Source of the DNA: Patescibacteria group bacterium
GTDB lineage: Bacteria > Patescibacteriota > Patescibacteriia > UBA2591 > JAQWAS01
Direction of reading: 5' to 3'
DNA: 64,000 nt
Assembly: GCA_028707495.1 (NCBI GenBank)
Contig: JAQWAS010000006.1
Coordinates: 664-64,663 of the forward strand
This document shows positions 1 to 64,000 of this stretch, piece by piece. The notes under the pieces were generated by a model that searched no databases, was not told the origin of the DNA, and saw nothing but the letters and a program-made list of their open reading frames with translations. Every line of letters begins with the position of its first letter. Position 1 is the first letter of the stretch. Made by a program: the position numbers and the translations under genes.

Positions 1-355
1 CAAACAAAATTGGGGAAAAAATAACCAAAACTGTCGGAATCAATGAAGCTAAACGTCCATCGGTGGCTATCTTTCTATTGAGAAGCAGGCTTGCGCCCAA
101 GATAAGGCCAAGCATAACAATTATTCCACCGAGCAAATTTCCAACCGATAAAGCCGTGGCGCGATCAATCGTTGCGTTTATACCCAAAGAAAGTTCGGGC
201 AAGCTGGTGATAAGTCCGAGCAAAATTCCAAACGCGAACAAGCGAATTTTTAAAACAGCGCCCAAATACTTGATATTTTTTACAGCAAAATTCGCCGACC
301 AGCCCAAGGCGATAAATAGTAATAAAAGTTTTAGTGAATCAAGTAAAATTGGCAT
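1..355 (-). CDS. CaCA-family (Na+/Ca2+ exchanger-like) membrane antiporter, N-terminal part; the gene runs off the left edge
   Basis: Manual minus-strand translation from ATG at 353-355 gives MPILLDSLKLLLLFIALGWSANFAVKNIKYLGAVLKIRLFAFGILLGLITSLPELSLGINATIDRATALSVGNLLGG..., which contains the alpha-repeat GxSxPE motif of CaCA exchangers. It is absent from the ORF track because it is partial; the + ORF 63..431 is its antisense shadow. Confidence 0.5.
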   Translation of the reverse strand, partial: MPILLDSLKLLLLFIALGWSANFAVKNIKYLGAVLKIRLFAFGILLGLITSLPELSLGINATIDRATALSVGNLLGGIIVMLGLILGASLLLNRKIATDGRLASLIPTVLVIFSPILF

Positions 356-1034: not shown

Positions 1035-1302
1035 AGTTTATATTAATTGTTTATTTTATAAAATCGTTTTCTGAGCGACGAGAGGAGCGAGAAAAACACC
1101 ATATACCCCCCTCTTAAAAAAATAAAAATAAAATTTGTTCATTATAGAAAAGTGTTAGGCGTTAGCCGTAAAAAGAAAAGCATATTTCATATAACAGGGT
1201 TTATACAAACTCATTAAATTGAGCCTTTATTTAAGCCAAAAATGAGCTTAAAATTTGTAATCATAAATGGTTATGATTACACAGAAATAGGCTATTTATT
1301 AT

Positions 1303-3922: not shown

Positions 3923-5917
3923 TTATTGAATTGTATTTTTTTCTTGTTCAACCTCTTTAAAGGCGCGCAGAATATCGTCGGGTTGAATTTGAGTTTTACC
4001 TTCAAATTGCAGGCCACACTCTTCACCGGCATTAGCCTGAGGAATATCTTGTTGGCTTTTTTGAATTTTACTTACCTTACCTAAACCAATTTCTTTTTGA
4101 TCGCGTAAGATTAAACAGCGATTACCCTTTTCGATTTTACCACTAACAACCTGTCCGCCCAAAATAGTTTGTTTAGCTTCTTGGCGGAAAATTTTTAAAA
4201 CTTTTAATTGACCGGTTTCGATTGTTTTAAACTCGGGTTGAATGAGTTTATTCATGCAATCCTTAATTTCATCAATCAATTCATAAATAATACCAAAATT
4301 TTTAACTGGAATATTTTTATTTTTAGCTAATAGGTCAGCAGAAGTAGAAATTTGAGTATTAAAGCCAAAAACATGACCATGCTTAACTTCAGCACGCAAA
4401 ATGTCGGTTTCATTAATTTGACCTAAACCACGTTTAATAATATTAATTTTAATTTTAGGATGTTCTAATTTATTAATAGCCTCTTCAACGGCCTCAAGCG
4501 AACCCATAACATCAGCTTTTAAAACCAAGTTTAAATTAATTCTATCAGAGGACTCTTCGGTAGTTTTGTTTTTAATTGATAAAATTTGTTCAAAAGTTTC
4601 TTGTTGTTTTATCTTTTTTCTTTTTTTAAGATCTTTTTTGTCATCAATTTTTTCTAAAATGTCGCCAGCTTGCGGAGTGTTTTTTAAACCTAAAATTTTA
4701 ACCGGTGTACCGGGAAGAGCTTGTTCAATTTCTTGGCCATTAGTTAATTTTAAAGACTTTATTTTGCCACTACCTTGATTAACCAAAACAATATCATTTT
4801 TTTTAAGAGTACCACTTTGAATTAAAACTATAGCTTGTGGACCTTCGTTTTTATCTAGATGAGCCTCGATAATTGTGCCTAAAACCGGGCCATTGGGATC
4901 AGCCATAATTTTTTCTTTTTCCATATCAACAATCAACAAAATCATATCTAATAAATCATCAATGCCTTGTCCGGTTTTGGCTGAAATTGGCACGCAAATT
5001 GTTTTTCCGCCCCAGTCTTCTGGAGTTAGGTTAATTTCAGATAACTGTTTTTTAACTTGATCAACGTTGGCCTCGGGTTTGTCAACTTTATTAATAGCCA
5101 CTAGCATCATCAGATTTTCTTCTTGAATAATTTTAATCGATTCCATGGTTTGGGGCTTTAAACCTTCCTCGGCCGCCACGATTAAAATAGCGATATCGGC
5201 AATAGTGCCACCGCGGGAACGCATTTTTTTAAAAGCCGCATGTCCAGGTGTATCAATAAAAGTAATAAGTTTATTTTTCTTTTCAACCTGATAAGCTGAA
5301 ATGTGTTGGGTAATACCTCCTTGTTCTGATTGAGTAACGTGAGTTTTACGAATAGCATCTAATAAAGTTGTTTTACCATGATCGATGTGGCCCATAATTG
5401 TTACCACTGGCGTTTTAGAGCTTAAATTTTGATCAAGGTGTTGAGCAATAAGATCCTTAGCATTAATTTTTCTAATCTTTTTTTCTTCTAGAGACTGTTC
5501 CGTCACTCTAAATCCTAAATCCTCAACAATAATAGCTGCAGTTTCAAAATCAATATTGTCATTAATTGTTGCCATAATACCGTTGCGCATTAGTTCACTG
5601 ATAACTTTTACAACCGATAAATTAAGTCTATCGGCTAAATCATTAACAGTGATGACCTTAGGTAGACTGACTGGTGGTTGGTCAGCTTTAGCTTCAGCTT
5701 TTTTTTCTTTAAGTTGATCTTGTATTTCAATTTTTTGACTAATACTTTTAAGCTTCTCCTGCTCTTGATAATCTTTCCAGACTTGAATGATTTTTTCAGC
5801 AATTTTATCATCGACCTGAATGGCTTTTTCCCCCACATCAAAACCAAGCTGAGGAATTTTTTCGCGCAACTCTTGGGTTGAGGTTTTTAGTTTTCTAGCT
5901 AATTCAGTGATATTCAT
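3923..5917 (-). CDS. infB: Translation initiation factor IF-2
   Basis: G-domain motifs GHIDHGKTTLLD, DTPGH and NKVD, C-terminal beta-barrel domains, 664 aa. Confidence 0.9.
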   Translation of the reverse strand: MNITELARKLKTSTQELREKIPQLGFDVGEKAIQVDDKIAEKIIQVWKDYQEQEKLKSISQKIEIQDQLKEKKAEAKADQPPVSLPKVITVNDLADRLNLSVVKVISELMRNGIMATINDNIDFETAAIIVEDLGFRVTEQSLEEKKIRKINAKDLIAQHLDQNLSSKTPVVTIMGHIDHGKTTLLDAIRKTHVTQSEQGGITQHISAYQVEKKNKLITFIDTPGHAAFKKMRSRGGTIADIAILIVAAEEGLKPQTMESIKIIQEENLMMLVAINKVDKPEANVDQVKKQLSEINLTPEDWGGKTICVPISAKTGQGIDDLLDMILLIVDMEKEKIMADPNGPVLGTIIEAHLDKNEGPQAIVLIQSGTLKKNDIVLVNQGSGKIKSLKLTNGQEIEQALPGTPVKILGLKNTPQAGDILEKIDDKKDLKKRKKIKQQETFEQILSIKNKTTEESSDRINLNLVLKADVMGSLEAVEEAINKLEHPKIKINIIKRGLGQINETDILRAEVKHGHVFGFNTQISTSADLLAKNKNIPVKNFGIIYELIDEIKDCMNKLIQPEFKTIETGQLKVLKIFRQEAKQTILGGQVVSGKIEKGNRCLILRDQKEIGLGKVSKIQKSQQDIPQANAGEECGLQFEGKTQIQPDDILRAFKEVEQEKNTIQ

Positions 5918-6025
5918 ATGTTCCTATTGTACTCTTTTAAACCAAATAAGTCAATTAATAAATTAAAAAACTTGATTTTATTATCAGAATAAGTTAAAAT
6001 AAGATTTAATATAAACAAATAAATT

Positions 6026-7192
6026 ATGGCCTCAGACTTAATTAAAAAATTGCAAGAATTGATTAAAAAATCAACCAGAATTTTAGTTATTTTTCCAGCT
6101 GATTTTGATGGTGATATGTTAGCTTCAAGTTTGGCTTGGATAAATTTTTTATCTAAATGCGATCGACAATTACATGTCGATATAGTCGCTGATGGTATAG
6201 AAATTCCTAAAAAGTATGATTTTTTAAAATGTTTAGATCAAATTCAATCGAAGTTGAATTTAATTCGGGATTTAGTTATTTCTATCCAATCTCAAGACAA
6301 TAAAATTGGCGAATTAAGCTATGAAACGATTGATAATAAATTAAACATTTATTTATCTCCACAAGATCGAACTATTCAAAAAAATGATATTGCTTTAAGT
6401 TTAGACGGTTATAACTACGACTTGATTTTTGTTTTGGGTTGTCAACATTTATCTGACTTGGACACTGTTTATACTACACATAAAGATTTTTTTGATAAGA
6501 CGGCAATAATTAATTTTGATTATCATGCCAATAATGACAATTTTGGAATTTTAAATATTATTGATGTTAACTCAGCTTCGTTGGGAGAAGTGATTTATAA
6601 AATTATGCGTGGCTATAACCAAGAGCTAATTGATAAAGACATGGCCACGAGTTTATTGGCAGCGATGATTGCAGCAACTAACGCTTTTCGTTCGGCTAGC
6701 ACGAGCCAACACACTTTATTGGCAGCCAGCCAACTAATTTCTTTTGGAGCTGACAAAAGGAAAATTATGGAGAAATTATTTGAAAGTCGTTCCGTCGCCG
6801 TTTTAAAATTATGGGGTAGAGTTTTAGCGAGATTAAAAAATTCTCGCGATGGAAAGATTGCTTGGTCATTAATTTCAGATGAAGATATTTTGAAAAGTGG
6901 CTTAGATGGTTTAAATTCAACGGAGCAGGAAGAAGTAGTTTTTTGGGACATTATTAAAGAGCTTTATGCTAGTTTGTCACAAGCTCAAGTTGTTGCTATT
7001 TTTAGGCAAAAAAACAATCAAGTTAATGTTTATTTAAAATCACGAGACAGTAAAATTGATTTATTGAAAATCACTGAAGATTTCTCACCTCAAGGCGACA
7101 GTCAAAAAGTTAAATTAACATTTGAAAACGGCAGTATTTTAGAAATTGAAGATATTTTAACTAAACTGATAGAAACTAAAATGAGATCATAA
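6026..7192 (+). CDS. DHH-family phosphoesterase (NrnA-like, motifs partly degenerate)
   Basis: N-terminal DxD motif (FPADFDGD) and a DHH-like motif (FDYHANND). Transcribed divergently from rbfA/infB, a neighbourhood where nrnA is often found. Confidence 0.5.
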   Translation: MASDLIKKLQELIKKSTRILVIFPADFDGDMLASSLAWINFLSKCDRQLHVDIVADGIEIPKKYDFLKCLDQIQSKLNLIRDLVISIQSQDNKIGELSYETIDNKLNIYLSPQDRTIQKNDIALSLDGYNYDLIFVLGCQHLSDLDTVYTTHKDFFDKTAIINFDYHANNDNFGILNIIDVNSASLGEVIYKIMRGYNQELIDKDMATSLLAAMIAATNAFRSASTSQHTLLAASQLISFGADKRKIMEKLFESRSVAVLKLWGRVLARLKNSRDGKIAWSLISDEDILKSGLDGLNSTEQEEVVFWDIIKELYASLSQAQVVAIFRQKNNQVNVYLKSRDSKIDLLKITEDFSPQGDSQKVKLTFENGSILEIEDILTKLIETKMRS

Positions 7193-7211: not shown

Positions 7212-7288
7212 GGGCGCATAGCTCAGTTGGTTAGAGCACCACGCTTATAACGTGGGGGTCGATGGTTCGAGTCCATCTGCGCCCACCA
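7212..7288 (+). tRNA. tRNA-Ile with anticodon UAU, CCA encoded
   Basis: Manual cloverleaf: acceptor GGGCGCA/TGCGCCC, anticodon stem CCACG/CGTGG, loop CTTATAA giving anticodon TAT, T-loop TTCGAGT, 3' CCA. Confidence 0.8.
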
Positions 7289-61866: not shown

Positions 61867-62288
61867 AGGATTAAATTAATAAAATTTTTTTAAATGAAAT
61901 ATGTATTTTTGAAAATTCAAAATAAAAAATGATTACGCAATGAGTTTAATTTTTTTTCTCAATCATCAAGAGATAATCTCTGAATGTCGCCATGCAAGAC
62001 TTCACCAGCAATAAATTTTAAAAGTAAATAAGGGACTGCGCAATTTTGACATTTTGTTTGACCGCCAAAAGTACACCCGCCCTGAGTTTTCCAAAGTTGT
62101 AAACAAAATTCCAATTCTTTGAGATATTTTATTTTTTCTTGGGCTTGTTCTTTTTTCATTTTTTAATTTTTATAACATCAGGGATAAGAGAAGTTTTCGT
62201 AGTGGAGTGGAGGCAAATATGGGTGTAGGCTTTTGGATAAAAACCGTAACCAGATATGCCGTGTTAGCTGATGTATTCCTTTTCTTTT

Positions 62289-62312
62289 GTCCGCCCGGGG
62301 CGGACTTGTTTT
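62289..62312 (+). terminator. Plus-strand intrinsic terminator (gtccgcccggggcggac followed by TTGTTTT) with no plus-strand CDS upstream
   Basis: Perfect 7-bp GC stem followed by a T-tract; on the minus strand it is followed by A-rich sequence, so it is unidirectional. Confidence 0.55.
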
Positions 62313-62410
62313 AAAAAAATTTCAAATTTCTTTTTACGTTTTGGGCGAAGGGCAGAGGGGTTAGGGGTGCCTACCCGCCTCTGGAGGAAATGCCCAAAAA
62401 TCAAAACTCC

Positions 62411-63361
62411 TTATTTGTTTTTTCTTTGCCGTATCCTGTTCTTCAAGTACCTTTCAATCGCTTCTTTTGAAGTTAGCCAATTTCTGCCTTCTTTGTGTGC
62501 TTCTAACTTTCCTTGTCTGGCCAGCAAATTTAGATATTTTGCAGAAAAAGGTGTAGTTTTAGATATCTCAGTTAGTGAAACAAATTTTTCTTGTTTGGTG
62601 GTTGTGGGAGTTAAATTTTTTAGGTAAATATCAAGGGATCGCTCTATGGATTGAGCGATAAATTTTACTAGTGGTTCAAATCTACCACTATCCGCTTTAT
62701 CCAGTACATCGTAATATTTTTTGCGGTCATTTTTTAATATAATCACCAACGGATAACCAGATTGCATCAGCAATAAATTCATCGTTAGGCGGGCGGTTCT
62801 ACCGTTACCGTCAAAAAATGGATGAATATGGACTAATTTGTGGTGCAACAATGCAACCAGCTCAATAATGTTTGTCTTGCCTTTTTGTGAATTAAGCCAA
62901 TTAATTAAACCTCGCATTTTTTGTGGTACTTGCAAGGCGTCCGGAGGCGTGTGTTTGGCTCCACCAATAACCACATTAGAGTTTCTGTATTTTCCCGCCC
63001 ACTCTTTATCTGTTTTTTGGATAATAATTTGATGTAAATTTCGTATTAGTATTTCAGAAATGGTGTTCTTTTTGTTATTATCTATTAAGTCATACAAATA
63101 TTCCAGTGCGGTTTGGTGGTCTTTGGCTTCCAAGTGGTCTTTTAAAGGTTTTCCTTTTATGGTTATACCTTCATTAATAACCAAAAAAGTCTCTTTTAAA
63201 GTTAAAGAGTTGCCTTCAATCGCATTGGAGTTGTAGGTCATTTCTATCTGAAATTTCTCTCGCAGTTTTTGTACCGCTGATTTAGGCAATGGGCGAAGCT
63301 TGTTGAGTTTGATCAGCTTTTCTTCCAAGCGTTTTTTTATAATAGGAGATAAATAAGTCAT
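62411..63361 (-). CDS. Fic/Doc-family protein (AMPylation-type motif)
   Basis: HPFFDGNGRTARL is a canonical Fic motif, 316 aa. Confidence 0.85.
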   Translation of the reverse strand: MTYLSPIIKKRLEEKLIKLNKLRPLPKSAVQKLREKFQIEMTYNSNAIEGNSLTLKETFLVINEGITIKGKPLKDHLEAKDHQTALEYLYDLIDNNKKNTISEILIRNLHQIIIQKTDKEWAGKYRNSNVVIGGAKHTPPDALQVPQKMRGLINWLNSQKGKTNIIELVALLHHKLVHIHPFFDGNGRTARLTMNLLLMQSGYPLVIILKNDRKKYYDVLDKADSGRFEPLVKFIAQSIERSLDIYLKNLTPTTTKQEKFVSLTEISKTTPFSAKYLNLLARQGKLEAHKEGRNWLTSKEAIERYLKNRIRQRKNK

Positions 63362-63367
63362 AGAATA

Positions 63368-63410
63368 CTTAATATGGTTTAGTTAATTATTTACAGTATA
63401 CCATATTAAG
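63368..63410 (-). promoter_or_regulatory. 11-bp perfect palindrome (cttaatatggt...accatattaag) overlapping the TTGACC-16-TATACT promoter of the Fic gene
   Basis: Minus strand TTGACCaaattccttaatatggTATACT; the palindrome arms flank the -10 and the TSS, and the start codon lies 7 nt after the right arm. Confidence 0.5.
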
Positions 63411-63498
63411 GAATTTGGTCAAATATTTAATGTTTTTGGGCAGAGGGGTTAGGGGTGCCTGCCCGCCTTTGGAGGGAATGCCCCGAAGCCATTTCGTT

Positions 63499-64000
63499 TC
63501 AGATAATTTTATAGTGTGCGTTTCTGCCCAGTCCGATTCTTTCTATCTTTTTCAATCTAAGTAAAACATTCAGTGTTTGTTTTACTGTTGTTCTGATGAT
63601 TTTTGTATTATTCACGATATCACCCGTGCTCACTTCTTTTGCCTTTTCAATATATTGCCAAACAATTAGCTGTTTTTTGGACAGAATTTTTTCTATGTTT
63701 TCTTTTGATAGAAGTTCCACCGCCATTTGAGATTGCTTCAAAATAATATCTAAAAAGAAATCCAGCCAGTCAGCGATGTTCTCGTTATCTGTCCCAATAG
63801 TTTTTTGGCTGCGTCGCAAAGAGATATAATAATCTGGCTTATTGTCTTCCACCAATTTTTCATGAGAGACATAAGGAGCATACAAATATCCTGCTTTGAG
63901 TAAAAGTAGATTGGTTAGTACGCGAGATAGCCGTCCATTTCCGTCGCTAAAAGGATGAATTTTTAAAAATTCAACCAAAAAGTTGCCGATCACGAGTAAT
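63499..64000 (-). CDS. Second Fic/Doc-family protein, N-terminal part beyond the window edge
   Basis: HPFSDGNGRLSR Fic motif; the ORF is open to the right edge. Confidence 0.8.
   Translation of the reverse strand, partial: LLVIGNFLVEFLKIHPFSDGNGRLSRVLTNLLLLKAGYLYAPYVSHEKLVEDNKPDYYISLRRSQKTIGTDNENIADWLDFFLDIILKQSQMAVELLSKENIEKILSKKQLIVWQYIEKAKEVSTGDIVNNTKIIRTTVKQTLNVLLRLKKIERIGLGRNAHYKII

Follow-up and report, generated by a model that had tools for sequence, protein, structure and literature searches.

The window analysed here is a 64-kb stretch of DNA from a Patescibacteria group bacterium, the right end of which carries two Fic genes, a GC-rich repeat behind each of them, a palindromic promoter and one structured site (Table 1). 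Both Fic genes had been proposed in a preliminary description of the sequence, and both are real. Fic2 encodes 364 aa in full and is complete on L001:818-1912. The two proteins match the Fic family (Pfam PF02661) with E values of 2.8e-24 (Fic1) and 5.9e-15 (Fic2). They share with class II Fic AMP-transferases the Fic domain, the HxFx(D/E)GNGRxxR motif (at residue 180 in Fic1 and residue 213 in Fic2) and, N-terminal to it in the same chain, the (S/T)xxxE(G/N) inhibitory motif (SNAIEG at residue 45 and STRIEG at residue 69, respectively); the proteins themselves have no unusual features. The inhibitory helix (S/TxxxE) that had been raised as a possibility is present in both, and no antitoxin is needed because each protein carries its inhibitory motif within the molecule.

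Table 1. Features at the right end of the 64-kb window, named according to the proposed cassette reading
Feature	Positions	Strand	Details
66-aa ORF	61959-62159	minus	No family match; starts 12 nt past the GTT...AAAAA tail of the site
Structured site	62164-62274	minus	Covariance model R1, 62.4 bits, E 2e-13; the only one in the window
Site, 3′ half (degenerate)			P2 3′ strand decayed; R' box GTTATAAAAAT; GTT at 62176-62174
Site, 5′ half (intact)			R'' box ACATCAGCTAAC 62263-62274; P2 5′ strand 62250-62261; P3 hairpin 62228-62245; junction CACCCATATT 62216-62227; P4 5′ arm and loop 62199-62215
Cassette-end arm	62275-62337	minus	Motif AAAAGAAAAGGAAT 62275-62288; GC hairpin 62289-62305; A-rich 62306-62337
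Cassette-end hairpin of Fic1	62338-62413	minus	Starts TAA-GGAG; 5′ arm 62391-62406; 3′ arm 62338-62354
GC-rich segment of the Fic1 hairpin	62350-62395	minus	Family C-rich loop CACCCCTAACCCCTCTGCCC 62350-62369; rare 19-nt insertion 62370-62388
Fic1	62411-63361	minus	316 aa; class II Fic; inhibitory SNAIEG; active-site motif HPFFDGNGRTAR; C-terminal excisionase-type HTH (HTH_17)
Fic1 promoter	63368-63422	minus	-35 TTGACC 63417-63422; 16 nt; -10 TATACT 63395-63400; overlapped by 11-bp perfect palindrome CTTAATATGGT 63400-63410 / ACCATATTAAG 63368-63378
Relic hairpin of the Fic2 cassette	63438-63495	minus	Keeps 5′ arm TGGCTTCGGGGCA and 46-nt GC-rich loop variant 63438-63483
Fic2, 3′ part	63499-64000	minus	Class II Fic; inhibitory STRIEG; active-site motif HPFSDGNGRLSR; gene continues past the window end

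The Fic1 promoter, described earlier as embedded in a palindrome, was recovered where it had been placed. Its -35 and -10 elements and the palindrome are conserved with Fic1 in all seven homologue contexts (7/7), which supports the earlier suggestion of an autoregulatory operator and agrees with the C-terminal HTH of Fic1; the palindrome is likely to be the operator for this protein's own HTH_17 domain. In the proposed cassette reading Fic1 is self-contained: it brings a promoter of its own, overlapped by the conserved palindromic operator, together with an inhibitory helix. Homologues that are 84–91% identical to Fic1 recur as a cassette in many Patescibacteria of several classes, including the array loci L029, L039, L160, L161, L163 and L165. 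Such identity across several classes, in a gene with its own promoter and operator, fits cassette spread.

A GC-rich loop on a covarying stem

The GC-rich repeat consists of two 46-nt direct copies that are 93% identical, and its 23-nt core occurs exactly twice in the 64 kb of the window, where shuffled sequences are expected to contain none. That a copy follows each Fic ORF, as previously noted, stands, but the second copy lies about 8 nt from its earlier placement (63438-63483, not 63430-63476), and the distance from the stop codon to the element measures 15 nt for both genes instead of the 12–13 nt claimed. Equal distances behind the two Fic genes, and a rare 19-nt insertion common to both copies, would suit a Fic-specific 3′ element that was duplicated along with a tandem Fic gene, as had been supposed. 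This explanation, to which we attach practically no weight, is refuted by four observations. The Fic1 and Fic2 proteins can be aligned over 29 residues only, corresponding to the active-site region; the arms of the two hairpins fall in different stem classes; the element lies behind dozens of non-Fic genes; and it is present behind 4 of 7 Fic1 homologues and missing behind the other 3.

In total, 82 instances of the element were found behind many unrelated genes, and in these it forms the conserved loop of a hairpin. The covariation analysis proposed in the preliminary description, carried out on 70 unique copies, gave a covarying stem and a conserved loop: the copies have 55 different stems and few loop variants, the stem is 82% Watson–Crick paired with many compensatory changes, and the C-rich loop has the consensus TTCACCCC-N2-7-CCCCTC. 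Sixty-two of the 82 hairpins sit 72–145 nt (mode ~78) upstream of a structured site of ~113 nt. The Fic2 copy in the window is a relic: its 3′ arm, A-rich terminator arm and structured site are missing, and ...CTCTGCCC runs directly into the promoter module of Fic1.

The suggestion that the GC-rich segments are structured 3′ RNA elements or recombination sites was right in that they are selected, structured and tied to recombination sites, but the RNA option is not favoured. There is no bias of G.T over A.C mismatches (that is, towards G.U) in the hairpin stem (29 versus 31), nor a G.T versus A.C bias in the helices of the site, and an RNA role is therefore not favoured for either. Most likely the hairpin is a DNA-level accessory of the site, because its loop and the site junction share a YCACCC motif and its stem is free of this bias; this role is the least certain step of our reading.

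Two further candidates were ruled out: an intrinsic terminator, as a T-run is absent behind the hairpin on either strand, and a 46-aa ORF across the element (62264-62404, minus strand), the frame of which is shifted by the 19-nt indel relative to the common variant. Exact core patterns gave chance matches only, both in viral contigs (GGGGTTAGGGGTGCC) and in GTDB representative genomes (GGTTAGGGGTGCCNNCCCGCC); the 19-nt-insertion variant of the window is rare, and the pattern used on the genomes was too specific. No Rfam family reached threshold for the GC-rich element, the site or the arms. The DUF3800-XI motif (RF02975; Weinberg et al. 2017, PMC5737381) gave scores of 20.0 and 16.8 bits, well under its gathering score of 37.8; the 19-nt insertion and the start of the C-rich loop (UCCCUCCAAAGGCGGGCAGGCACCCC) align to the model's single-stranded 3′ part, whereas its hairpin is unmatched in the element, and the resemblance is a lead only.

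A structured site in one-directional arrays

The site spans ~105–113 nt and combines an AAC...GTT box, both parts of which are (nearly) invariant, with three covarying helices. Pairing is kept in 90.8% of cells, compared with 83.5% in shuffles, and the covariation score of 0.231 (0.106 in shuffles) was reached by none of 500 shuffles. Helices P2, P3 and P4 are ~97% paired, with compensatory changes, and P1 conserves only TAAC/GTTA. P2 is a continuous, bulge-free helix of 11–12 bp (97% paired), and the unpaired spacer is asymmetric, with 1 nt (A) on the 5′ side and 4–5 nt (GAAAC) on the 3′ side. The 7-mers of the site mostly agree with RYYYAAC/GTTRRRY at six of seven positions (AGCTAAC, ATATAAC; GTTAGCT, GTTATAT), and some agree at all seven (ATCTAAC, GTTAGGC). 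Similarity between copies ends abruptly just past the GTT. Hybrids of left and right site variants occur at three loci (L090, L102 and L037), so the crossover point could lie within the site, or the hybrids could be products of homologous recombination. An nhmmer profile of the site was less sensitive than the covariance model and served as a cross-check only.

The window's only site overlaps a small RNA of ~130 nt that had been proposed for the plus strand at 62161-62312. Most of that stretch (62164-62274) is the antisense of the site (E 2e-13) and no plus-strand promoter was found at 62161, and the proposal is not supported. Its plus-strand terminator-like hairpin (62289-62312) is partly upheld: the GC hairpin at 62289-62305 is real, is followed by TTGTTTT and resembles an intrinsic terminator on the plus strand only, but it is a conserved part of the cassette-end arm. 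This arm repeats, in inverted form, the module with which the next cassette opens in related arrays; the sequence of its terminator hairpin is conserved and covaries between loci, and cassette-start and cassette-end arms alike carry outward-facing terminator hairpins. The 66-aa ORF beyond the site is either a small cassette that closes the array or the gene with which the chromosome resumes past it.

Covariance model R1 identified ~190 sites (E < 1e-5) in 100 related contigs. All sites lie on one strand in every one of the 47 multi-site loci. The intervals between sites have a median of 918 nt, and in 98 of 104 of them the longest ORF runs in the same direction as the sites. At L163, 12 sites are found within 13 kb, with about one gene per interval and two Fic genes among them. 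Toxin and defence-type genes are among the cargo (Fic, HigB/HTH, AAA_21 and T5orf172). To the right of one site, three loci (L029, L030 and L036) share 3 kb at 100% identity, and to its left their genes are unrelated.

The module is present in multiple copies, contigs often break there, and its form is that of a long imperfect palindrome, with two inverted arms around a centre. These properties are also consistent with a palindromic intergenic repeat (MITE- or REP-like) that spreads itself between genes and has no part in gene movement. We nevertheless regard such a repeat as very improbable, given the strict co-orientation of the sites in 47/47 multi-site loci, their clustering in arrays at one recombinase gene with fixed geometry, the presence of a single site in the 64-kb window and the swapping of flanking genes between identical strains.

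The strong covariation of the three site helices and of the hairpin stem would also suit RNA elements, the site and terminator hairpin being a structured non-coding RNA, a cis-regulatory leader or a 3′ untranslated region, and the C-rich-loop hairpin an mRNA 3′ stabilizer or protein-binding RNA loop. On both flanks, a canonical hairpin with a U-tract lies behind the site when the outward strand is read; the C-rich loop looks like an anti-Shine–Dalgarno sequence, in an element that starts AAGGAG; and there is the weak, sub-threshold resemblance to DUF3800-XI. This interpretation seems improbable to us, however. In addition to the missing G.U excess, plus-strand promoter and Rfam match described above, copy similarity breaks off just past the GTT, a half site is fused to dif-like sequence beside a recombinase gene, and gene content switches at sites between otherwise identical strains. 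A riboswitch-like leader is further argued against by the neighbouring genes, which are functionally unrelated.

A recombinase gene and a dif-like half site

Homologues of a tyrosine recombinase occur in 15 of 120 loci (0.62 Mb). In 14 of these 15 the gene lies upstream of the array and diverges from it; the array start that belongs to the window, with any recombinase gene, lies past both the window and the contig sequence recovered around it. Beside the recombinase gene, 60–110 nt from the start codon, is a conserved dif-like half site ending ...A|GTTA, with the junction TTCGTATATAAAC(G)A|GTTA... and arms inverted around ...ATAA-ACGAG-TTAT.... Among solved structures, the best match of the recombinase is VchIntIA (2a3v). 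The phmmer alignment to VchIntIA is split, with IntI residues 186–239 corresponding to only 12 residues of the recombinase encoded at L029:977-1837, and the 'integron integrase' model TIGR02249 scores 228.5 against a cut-off of 265, in two stretches. NCBIfam NF040815 (recomb_XerA_Arch) scores 235.6, over its cut-off of 220, and the XerA structures 4a8e and 5hxy also match strongly.

The recombinase may simply be a housekeeping Xer. The arrays would then be an IMEX-type pile-up at chromosomal dif, in which a housekeeping Xer of the 'Cand' Xer-related group acts on folded sites that mimic dif as the folded attP of phage CTX does; the half site at its gene would be dif, and the cassettes would be small integrative elements that accumulate in tandem. 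The resemblance of the half site to an Xer site with inverted arms speaks for this, as does a recombinase that passes the XerA cut-off and is without the IntI insertion. In single-recombinase Xer systems (XerS, XerH), moreover, dif adjoins the xer gene. Candidate-phyla recombinases have also been treated as Xer substitutes (Smyshlyaev et al. 2021). By contrast, the cassettes are mostly single genes of ~0.9 kb without replication or transfer functions, one highly structured site family is used throughout, which is the pattern of integrons and not of independent elements, and the GC skew does not invert near the array of the window, although the start of this array lies outside the window. On balance we consider a pile-up at dif rather unlikely; the main difference from our preferred reading is whether the arrays have a recombinase of their own.

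A probable integron-like cassette array

The comparisons show the anatomy of the sites, their covariation, the array geometry, the link to a recombinase and gene turnover between strains. Our preferred reading is that the right end of the window is probably the distal end of an integron-like gene-cassette array in a Patescibacteria chromosome, with Fic2 and Fic1 as cassette genes and exchange driven by a recombinase. Every cassette of the family closes with a conserved module, which begins with a stop codon inside AATAAGGAG and continues with a ~17-bp hairpin that has a covarying stem and, as its conserved C-rich loop, the GC-rich element. An A-rich arm with an outward-facing terminator hairpin comes third, and the last piece is the ~113-nt hairpin-folding site, with its R box (..TAAC / GTTA..), asymmetric spacer, 11–12-bp L box and three-way junction with two small hairpins. 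We infer that an Xer/IntI-like recombinase, encoded divergently at the array start and adjoining a dif-like double-stranded site (TTCGTATATAAAC-GA-GTTATATGAAAT), catalyses strand exchange between the dif-like site and the folded sites, at the conserved GTT or immediately beside it. Cassettes would be inserted, excised and reshuffled in this way, much as integron integrases use attI and attC. The window's array appears to be decaying, with the Fic2 module reduced to its loop and a lone site with a mutated 3′ half. Neither excision products nor circular cassettes or empty sites were observed. We found no earlier report.

A broader proposal is more tentative, and we hold it with somewhat less than even confidence: that the arrays belong to a distinct cassette-capture platform of Patescibacteria, in which a Xer-derived recombinase without the integron domain is combined with a dif-like site and with folded three-way-junction sites that have accessory hairpins, the GC-rich loop being one of these. 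It could be an independent invention of the integron principle or a surviving intermediate between Xer/dif systems and integrons. If true, it would be a main route by which Fic, toxin–antitoxin and defence genes move among these bacteria with reduced genomes.

Integrons are the textbook gene-capture system, and both the origin of their integrases from Xer-type enzymes and the source of their cassettes are open questions. The system described here bears on the first of these, as it has an integron architecture without the domain thought to be needed to read folded attC, and a dif-like site where integrons have attI. With the site model R1, such arrays can readily be mapped in public metagenomes. 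Cassette exchange of this kind would help to explain the fast strain-level turnover of accessory genes in Patescibacteria, and the assembly breaks at such loci. For annotation, both Fic genes are best treated as self-inhibited, self-regulated cassette genes and not as a toxin–antitoxin pair with a missing partner.

Comparison with known systems

The exploiters of Xer/dif that we compared are IMEX (CTX phage, with a folded single-stranded attP) and the pdif modules of Acinetobacter plasmids. A dif site consists of two inverted arms of ~11 bp around a 6–8-bp centre and lies at the replication terminus; here a dif-like sequence was found beside the recombinase gene, and the window shows no GC-skew inversion. 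Like Xer/dif systems and IMEX, the arrays have a short Xer-type recombinase that scores over the XerA cut-off and a dif-like inverted-arm site that adjoins its gene. The folded sites could imitate a Xer site whose central region is mismatched, as CTX attP(+) does, and the units are integrated in tandem. Unlike in IMEX, each unit is a single gene that has no phage or plasmid functions, all units share one structured ~113-nt site family, and arrays reach 9–12 units.

Integrons (IntI, attI and attC) are also among the closest known systems, in particular the sedentary chromosomal kind whose attC sites are homogeneous, such as the VCRs of Vibrio. Integron attC sites are imperfect inverted repeats of 57–141 nt, with an R'' box RYYYAAC and an R' box GTTRRRY, extrahelical bases in the L box and an unpaired central spacer of ~5–6 nt on both strands. 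Integron cassettes are promoterless and are expressed from a common Pc promoter, and it is the folded bottom strand that recombines, at G|TT. Many cassettes in the arrays described here appear to have their own promoter and terminators, unlike these classical promoterless cassettes, an observation that counts against the integron reading.

As in integrons, a recombinase gene diverges from an array that runs in one direction and consists mostly of single-gene cassettes (~0.5–1.7 kb). Each cassette is followed by an imperfect palindrome of ~110 nt that combines AAC/GTT boxes with another paired box and a spacer that is unpaired. Similarity ends at the GTT, a half site occupies the attI position beside the recombinase gene, cassette content varies between close strains, the cargo is of toxin and defence type, and the recombinase is nearest to VchIntIA. 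Unlike in integrons, the domain that IntI enzymes have around patch III is absent from the Patescibacteria recombinase, the sites are free of extrahelical bases and have a spacer of 1 versus 4–5 nt, and a conserved three-way junction with conserved loops takes the place of a terminal structure that is free and variable in integrons. The site is flanked by additional conserved arms (terminator hairpins and the C-rich-loop hairpin), the Fic1 cassette has its own promoter, and the host clade is Patescibacteria. The same comparison led to the rejection of a classical attC: the R boxes come close to canonical, but there is a misfit in the spacer, in the extrahelical bases and in the IntI domain. 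Because the recombinase is without the IntI-specific domain and the sites are without extrahelical bases, we describe the system as integron-like and not as an integron.

GC-rich repeats behind two Fic genes

At the right end of the AT-rich window (G+C around 32%), two tandem minus-strand Fic genes (Fic1 and Fic2) are each followed, 15 nt after the stop codon, by a GC-rich direct repeat of 46 nt (the GC element). The copies are 93% identical, which confirms the repeat pair of the preliminary description and its placement of the first copy; the second lies around 8 nt from the position given there. A 23-nt core occurs exactly twice in the 64 kb (none expected by chance). The suggestion that the elements had duplicated along with the genes does not hold: the Fic proteins are alignable only near the active site, across 29 residues, so a recent gene-plus-tail duplication is excluded as the source of the near-identity. 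The module that includes the GC element also lies 3' of unrelated genes, among them a caspase-helicase, a pair of AAA_21 genes and a T5orf172/MUG113 gene.

Contigs encoding Fic1 homologues reveal that the GC-rich segment is only the first part of a much longer conserved non-coding module, 45 nt of which (AAAAGAAAAGGAATACATCAGCTAACACGGCATATCTGGTTACGG) are identical between the window and Uhrbacteria contigs. Scanning a degenerate pattern derived from these 45 nt against JGI metagenomes yielded at least 120 loci. An exact-pattern scan for the GC element in 185,579 representative genomes returned chance matches only, because both window copies carry a 19-nt loop insertion; among the loci listed, a similar insertion was present at one other locus only (L103). 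On an IMG/VR contig (L003; 37% G+C), positions 56-130 hold a sequence (GGGGTAGGGGGTTAGGGGTGCCGGCCATACCCGTCTCC) loosely like the plus-strand form of the GC element, which may be a remote form of it, the contig being putatively viral, or a chance match.

Anatomy of the module

The module is described in gene direction (the minus strand of the window) and has four parts, (a) to (d). The part (a) motif reappears between hairpins where two stand in tandem and is therefore part of the element, not of the gene. Part (b) is the cassette-end GC hairpin, with the GC element in its C-rich loop. Its 70 unique copies include 55 different stems and few loop variants, and the stem is Watson-Crick in register in 82%, with many compensatory changes; the covariation check proposed earlier thus finds a covarying stem under a conserved loop. 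The part (c) hairpin differs wholly in sequence between loci while keeping its self-complementarity, has the look of an intrinsic terminator on the opposite strand alone, and belongs to an arm that is an inverted copy of the start module of the next cassette (GTTAGCTGAAAT-ATTCCTTTTCTTTT-hairpin-TTGTTTTAAAAAA...). Part (d), the centre, is a folded element of around 113 nt with helices P1-P4 and outer boxes R'' and R'; module copies diverge completely beyond its GTTRnnnGAAAT end.

The preliminary description had also raised recombination sites as a reading of the GC-rich elements, and this link is borne out: among the loci listed, 62 of 82 GC hairpins lie 72-145 nt (mode around 78) upstream of a centre, and those without a nearby downstream centre are mostly at contig ends.

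Features of the window and of comparison loci
Feature	Location	Strand	Description
Fic1	62411-63361	minus	316 aa
Fic2	from 63499 past window end	minus	364 aa in full on L001
GC element, copy 1	62350-62395		loop insertion at 62370-62388
GC element, copy 2	63438-63483		
Part (a)		gene direction	AATAAGGAG; its TAA is usually the gene's stop codon
Part (b)			GC hairpin; stem ~17 bp, conserved loop TTCACCCC-N2-7-CCCCTC
Part (c)	62289-62305 (hairpin)		A-rich stretch, then GC hairpin, then AAAAGAAAAGGAAT
Part (d), left			ACATCA-nnTAAC-A-[P2 5' strand nnGnATATCTGG]-TT-[P3 hairpin]-CCACCCATATTT
Part (d), right			[P4 hairpin]-ACATCAGATATnCnn (P2 3' strand)-GAAAC-GTTRnnnGAAAT
Window site	62164-62274	minus	62.4 bits, E 2e-13
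Tandem C-rich-loop hairpins, example	L148:337-420		
P4/leader loop motif TCCGCTACGCTAC	L029:3086-3120, L029:2010-2040; window 62199-62215, 1066-1097		doubled CGCTA
YCACCC motif	window 62216-62227, 62350-62369; A1 columns 51-60		
Half site	within 1063-1195	minus	...AAACCCT/GTTATATGAAATATGCTTTTCTTTTTACGG...
G-rich box	1099-1115	minus	after half site GTTATATGAAATATGCTTTTCTTTTTACGG
Leader hairpin	1066-1097	minus	ahead of 213-aa MFS-like gene (393-1034)
RNase Y gene	1303-2826	minus	directly before the half site
tRNA-Ile	7212-7288		anticodon TAT (UAU), called by ARAGORN

Several motifs recur within the module. Loci L055, L059, L074, L089 and L148 carry two different C-rich-loop hairpins in tandem, with AGAATAAGGAG between them and a single site after. 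The P4 hairpin and a 'leader' hairpin ahead of cassette genes have a 13-nt loop motif in common on different stems (TTTGCC/GGCAAA versus GTTTTC/GAAAAC), which suggests a common binding partner. The motif YCACCC is common to the single-stranded junction of the centre (CCTCCACCCATATTT) and the GC hairpin loop. This loop is similar to the anti-Shine-Dalgarno tail of 16S rRNA; AAGGAG stands at the start of the GC hairpin element.

The centre is a selected structure

We aligned 42 distinct centres (alignment A1) and scored the four helices. Standard pairs occupy 90.8% of helix cells versus 83.5% after shuffling, and the covariation score of 0.231 (shuffled, 0.106) was reached by none of 500 shuffles; pairing falls to 27-43% when the 3' partners are shifted 1-3 columns out of register. 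P2, P3 and P4 are around 97% paired, with C-G, G-C and U-A swaps. Conservation of P1 is limited to the inner TAAC/GTTA, and its outer positions do not covary, as expected if what lies 3' of GTT is already part of the next unit. The centre is thus a selected structure. G.T and A.C mismatches are about equally frequent in the GC hairpin stem (29 versus 31) and the centre helices have no consistent G.T/A.C bias, so RNA is not favoured and a DNA-level structure fits. An Rfam search matched no family in any part of the module; the insertion-bearing loop gave sub-threshold matches to DUF3800-XI (20.0 and 16.8 bits versus 37.8).

Arrays, recombinase and gene turnover

R1, a covariance model built on the centre, matched around 190 sites at E < 1e-5 across 100 of the loci listed. 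Among these loci, sites are all on one strand in 47 of 47 multi-site loci, the median distance between neighbouring sites is 918 nt (n = 104 intervals; interquartile range 587-1680), and the longest ORF is co-oriented with the sites in 98 of 104 intervals. The largest arrays have 9 sites (L143) and 12 sites across 13 kb (L163); the L163 array has around one gene per interval, two Fic genes included.

A tyrosine recombinase homologous to that of the Uhrbacteria contig L029 (35-51% identity) is encoded at 15 of the 120 loci listed (0.62 Mb in total). Where recombinase and sites occur together, the recombinase is upstream of the array and divergent in 14 of 15 loci, and the first site detected is usually 0.4-1.5 kb away. 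The half site TTCGTATATAAAC(G)A/GTTATATGAAAT is conserved 60-110 nt from the recombinase start codon; the left part is Xer-type-arm-like and the right part is an R' box starting a cassette.

Genes turn over at the sites. Contigs L029, L030 and L036, from one aquifer population, are 100% identical for 3 kb right of one centre; left of it, their genes are unrelated (T5orf172; AAA_21 and a 188-aa protein; a 247-aa protein). L037 has a further different gene there, and a hybrid centre. Homologous recombination between the repeated sites can account for such hybrid centres (L090, L102 and L037), although they may also reflect a crossover inside the centre. Many contigs, L001 among them, stop at a module, as expected of repeats with variable neighbours.

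In L088, around 480 nt separate a full site with a start-of-cassette arm (5326-5440) from a 23S rRNA gene downstream of it (5924-6653). The six-site array of L084 is followed, around 3.7 kb past its last detected site, by an RNase P RNA gene, and the L165 array is around 2.3 kb from rny.

A probable decaying array end in the window

R1 finds one site in the window, scoring well below intact sites (100-139 bits). No change is seen in its 5' half (R'' box, P2 5' strand, P3, junction and P4 5' arm); in its 3' half the P2 3' strand carries mutations and GTTATAAAAAT stands in the R' box. The end module of Fic1 is complete (hairpin, arm, site), whereas that of Fic2 is reduced to the 5' arm and loop, with the Fic1 promoter module fused directly after ...CTCTGCCC. 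Both Fic genes therefore lie in one interval of a decaying distal array end. The Logan contig L001 opens with the R' side of another site, the next one upstream (ATATGAAATATGC...), and the sequence recovered ends short of the array start and any recombinase. Taken together, the Fic genes and GC elements are probably cassette parts of integron-like arrays.

The plus-strand terminator-like hairpin reported previously is present and is the part (c) hairpin. The small RNA of around 130 nt proposed to end there (62161-62312) is not supported: it is mostly the antisense of the site, its 3' end is the arm hairpin, and we found no plus-strand promoter for it.

Near the left end of the window, the RNase Y gene is followed by a half site, a G-rich box and a leader hairpin; together they make up a cassette-start module that lacks a full site, so each end of the window touches the repeat family. 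The window also has a predicted tRNA-Ile with a UAU anticodon, an uncommon bacterial isoacceptor.

The Fic genes and their control

L001 (3.15 kb) encodes Fic1 exactly and reaches 1.9 kb beyond the window, with Fic2 complete, an OmdA-like gene upstream and no third GC element on this extension. The exact Fic1 protein derives from a 67.9-kb Patescibacteria MAG contig, and homologues of 84-91% identity occur in many Patescibacteria (annotated Magasanikbacteria, Uhrbacteria, Buchananbacteria and Parcubacteria). Both proteins have the Pfam Fic domain and the canonical HxFx(D/E)GNGRxxR motif. In class II Fic proteins, an upstream (S/T)xxxE(G/N) motif marks an intramolecular inhibitory helix. The suggested search for this motif located it in both chains (SNAIEG in Fic1, STRIEG in Fic2), and we take these to be such helices; the antitoxin partner noted as missing is therefore not expected.

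The Fic1 promoter and its 11-bp palindrome are where they had been described, the left arm lying between the -35 and -10 boxes. Promoter and palindrome (CTTAATATGGT-N21-ACCATATTAAG) are kept in 7 of 7 homologue contexts while sequence farther upstream varies, which supports the palindrome as an operator. Fic1 ends in an excisionase-type HTH, and autoregulation through it may reasonably be predicted.

In Uhrbacteria contigs, a 32-aa ORF (MGHAYKNFWSLNTDGAVTIGILRGSTPIVLNA) absent from the window separates the Fic1 promoter from the cassette leader (L029:3281-3379; the same in L030-L038). At three Fic1-homologue loci (L029:4394-4493, L039:4949-5050 and L160:7170-7200) the gene is followed by only the right part of a site (P4, P2 3' strand and R', with or without the GC loop), so that a defective site often leaves the Fic1 cassette 'locked in'.

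A proposed mechanism

From the observed anatomy, covariation, array geometry, recombinase link and gene turnover at the sites, we propose that the recombinase would exchange strands at or adjoining the conserved GTT, with the dif-like site beside its own gene and the folded sites as partners. The folded centre would present two boxes, their outer ends both ACATCAG toward an asymmetric unpaired spacer, and could thereby mimic a core recombination site in the way known from attC sites and from the CTX phage attP in its folded form. The inverted arms flanking the centre could extend the stem and aid extrusion, and their outward terminators would insulate cassettes bearing their own promoters. The GC hairpin may be an accessory binding or folding element; this best guess is the weakest step, and our confidence in any specific role for it is low.

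Comparison with known systems

Open-access full texts yielded no account of integrons or cassette arrays like these from Patescibacteria. An aquifer study applied IntegronFinder to groundwater MAGs, and the parts of it consulted note no integron result specific to Patescibacteria. Smyshlyaev et al. placed candidate-phyla recombinases in a Xer-related "Cand" group with a presumed Xer role (PMC8138268). The finding matters because it brings to light a structured cassette system that is widespread and linked to a recombinase.

The solved structure closest to the recombinase is that of the integron integrase from V. cholerae (2a3v; 177 bits), followed by XerA (4a8e; 153 bits); the recombinase scores above the cut-off of the NCBIfam XerA model and below that for integron integrases. 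The IntI-specific domain (IntI residues 186-239), treated as defining for integron integrases (PMC9668308), has only a 12-residue counterpart. Array sites retain AAC...GTT and are of attC-like length; they have no extrahelical bases, an asymmetric spacer (1 nt on one side, 4-5 nt on the other) and a conserved three-way junction. The system works like an integron yet, given the missing domain and these site differences, is not a member by two of the criteria tested; a Xer/dif-based platform may be an equally apt description.
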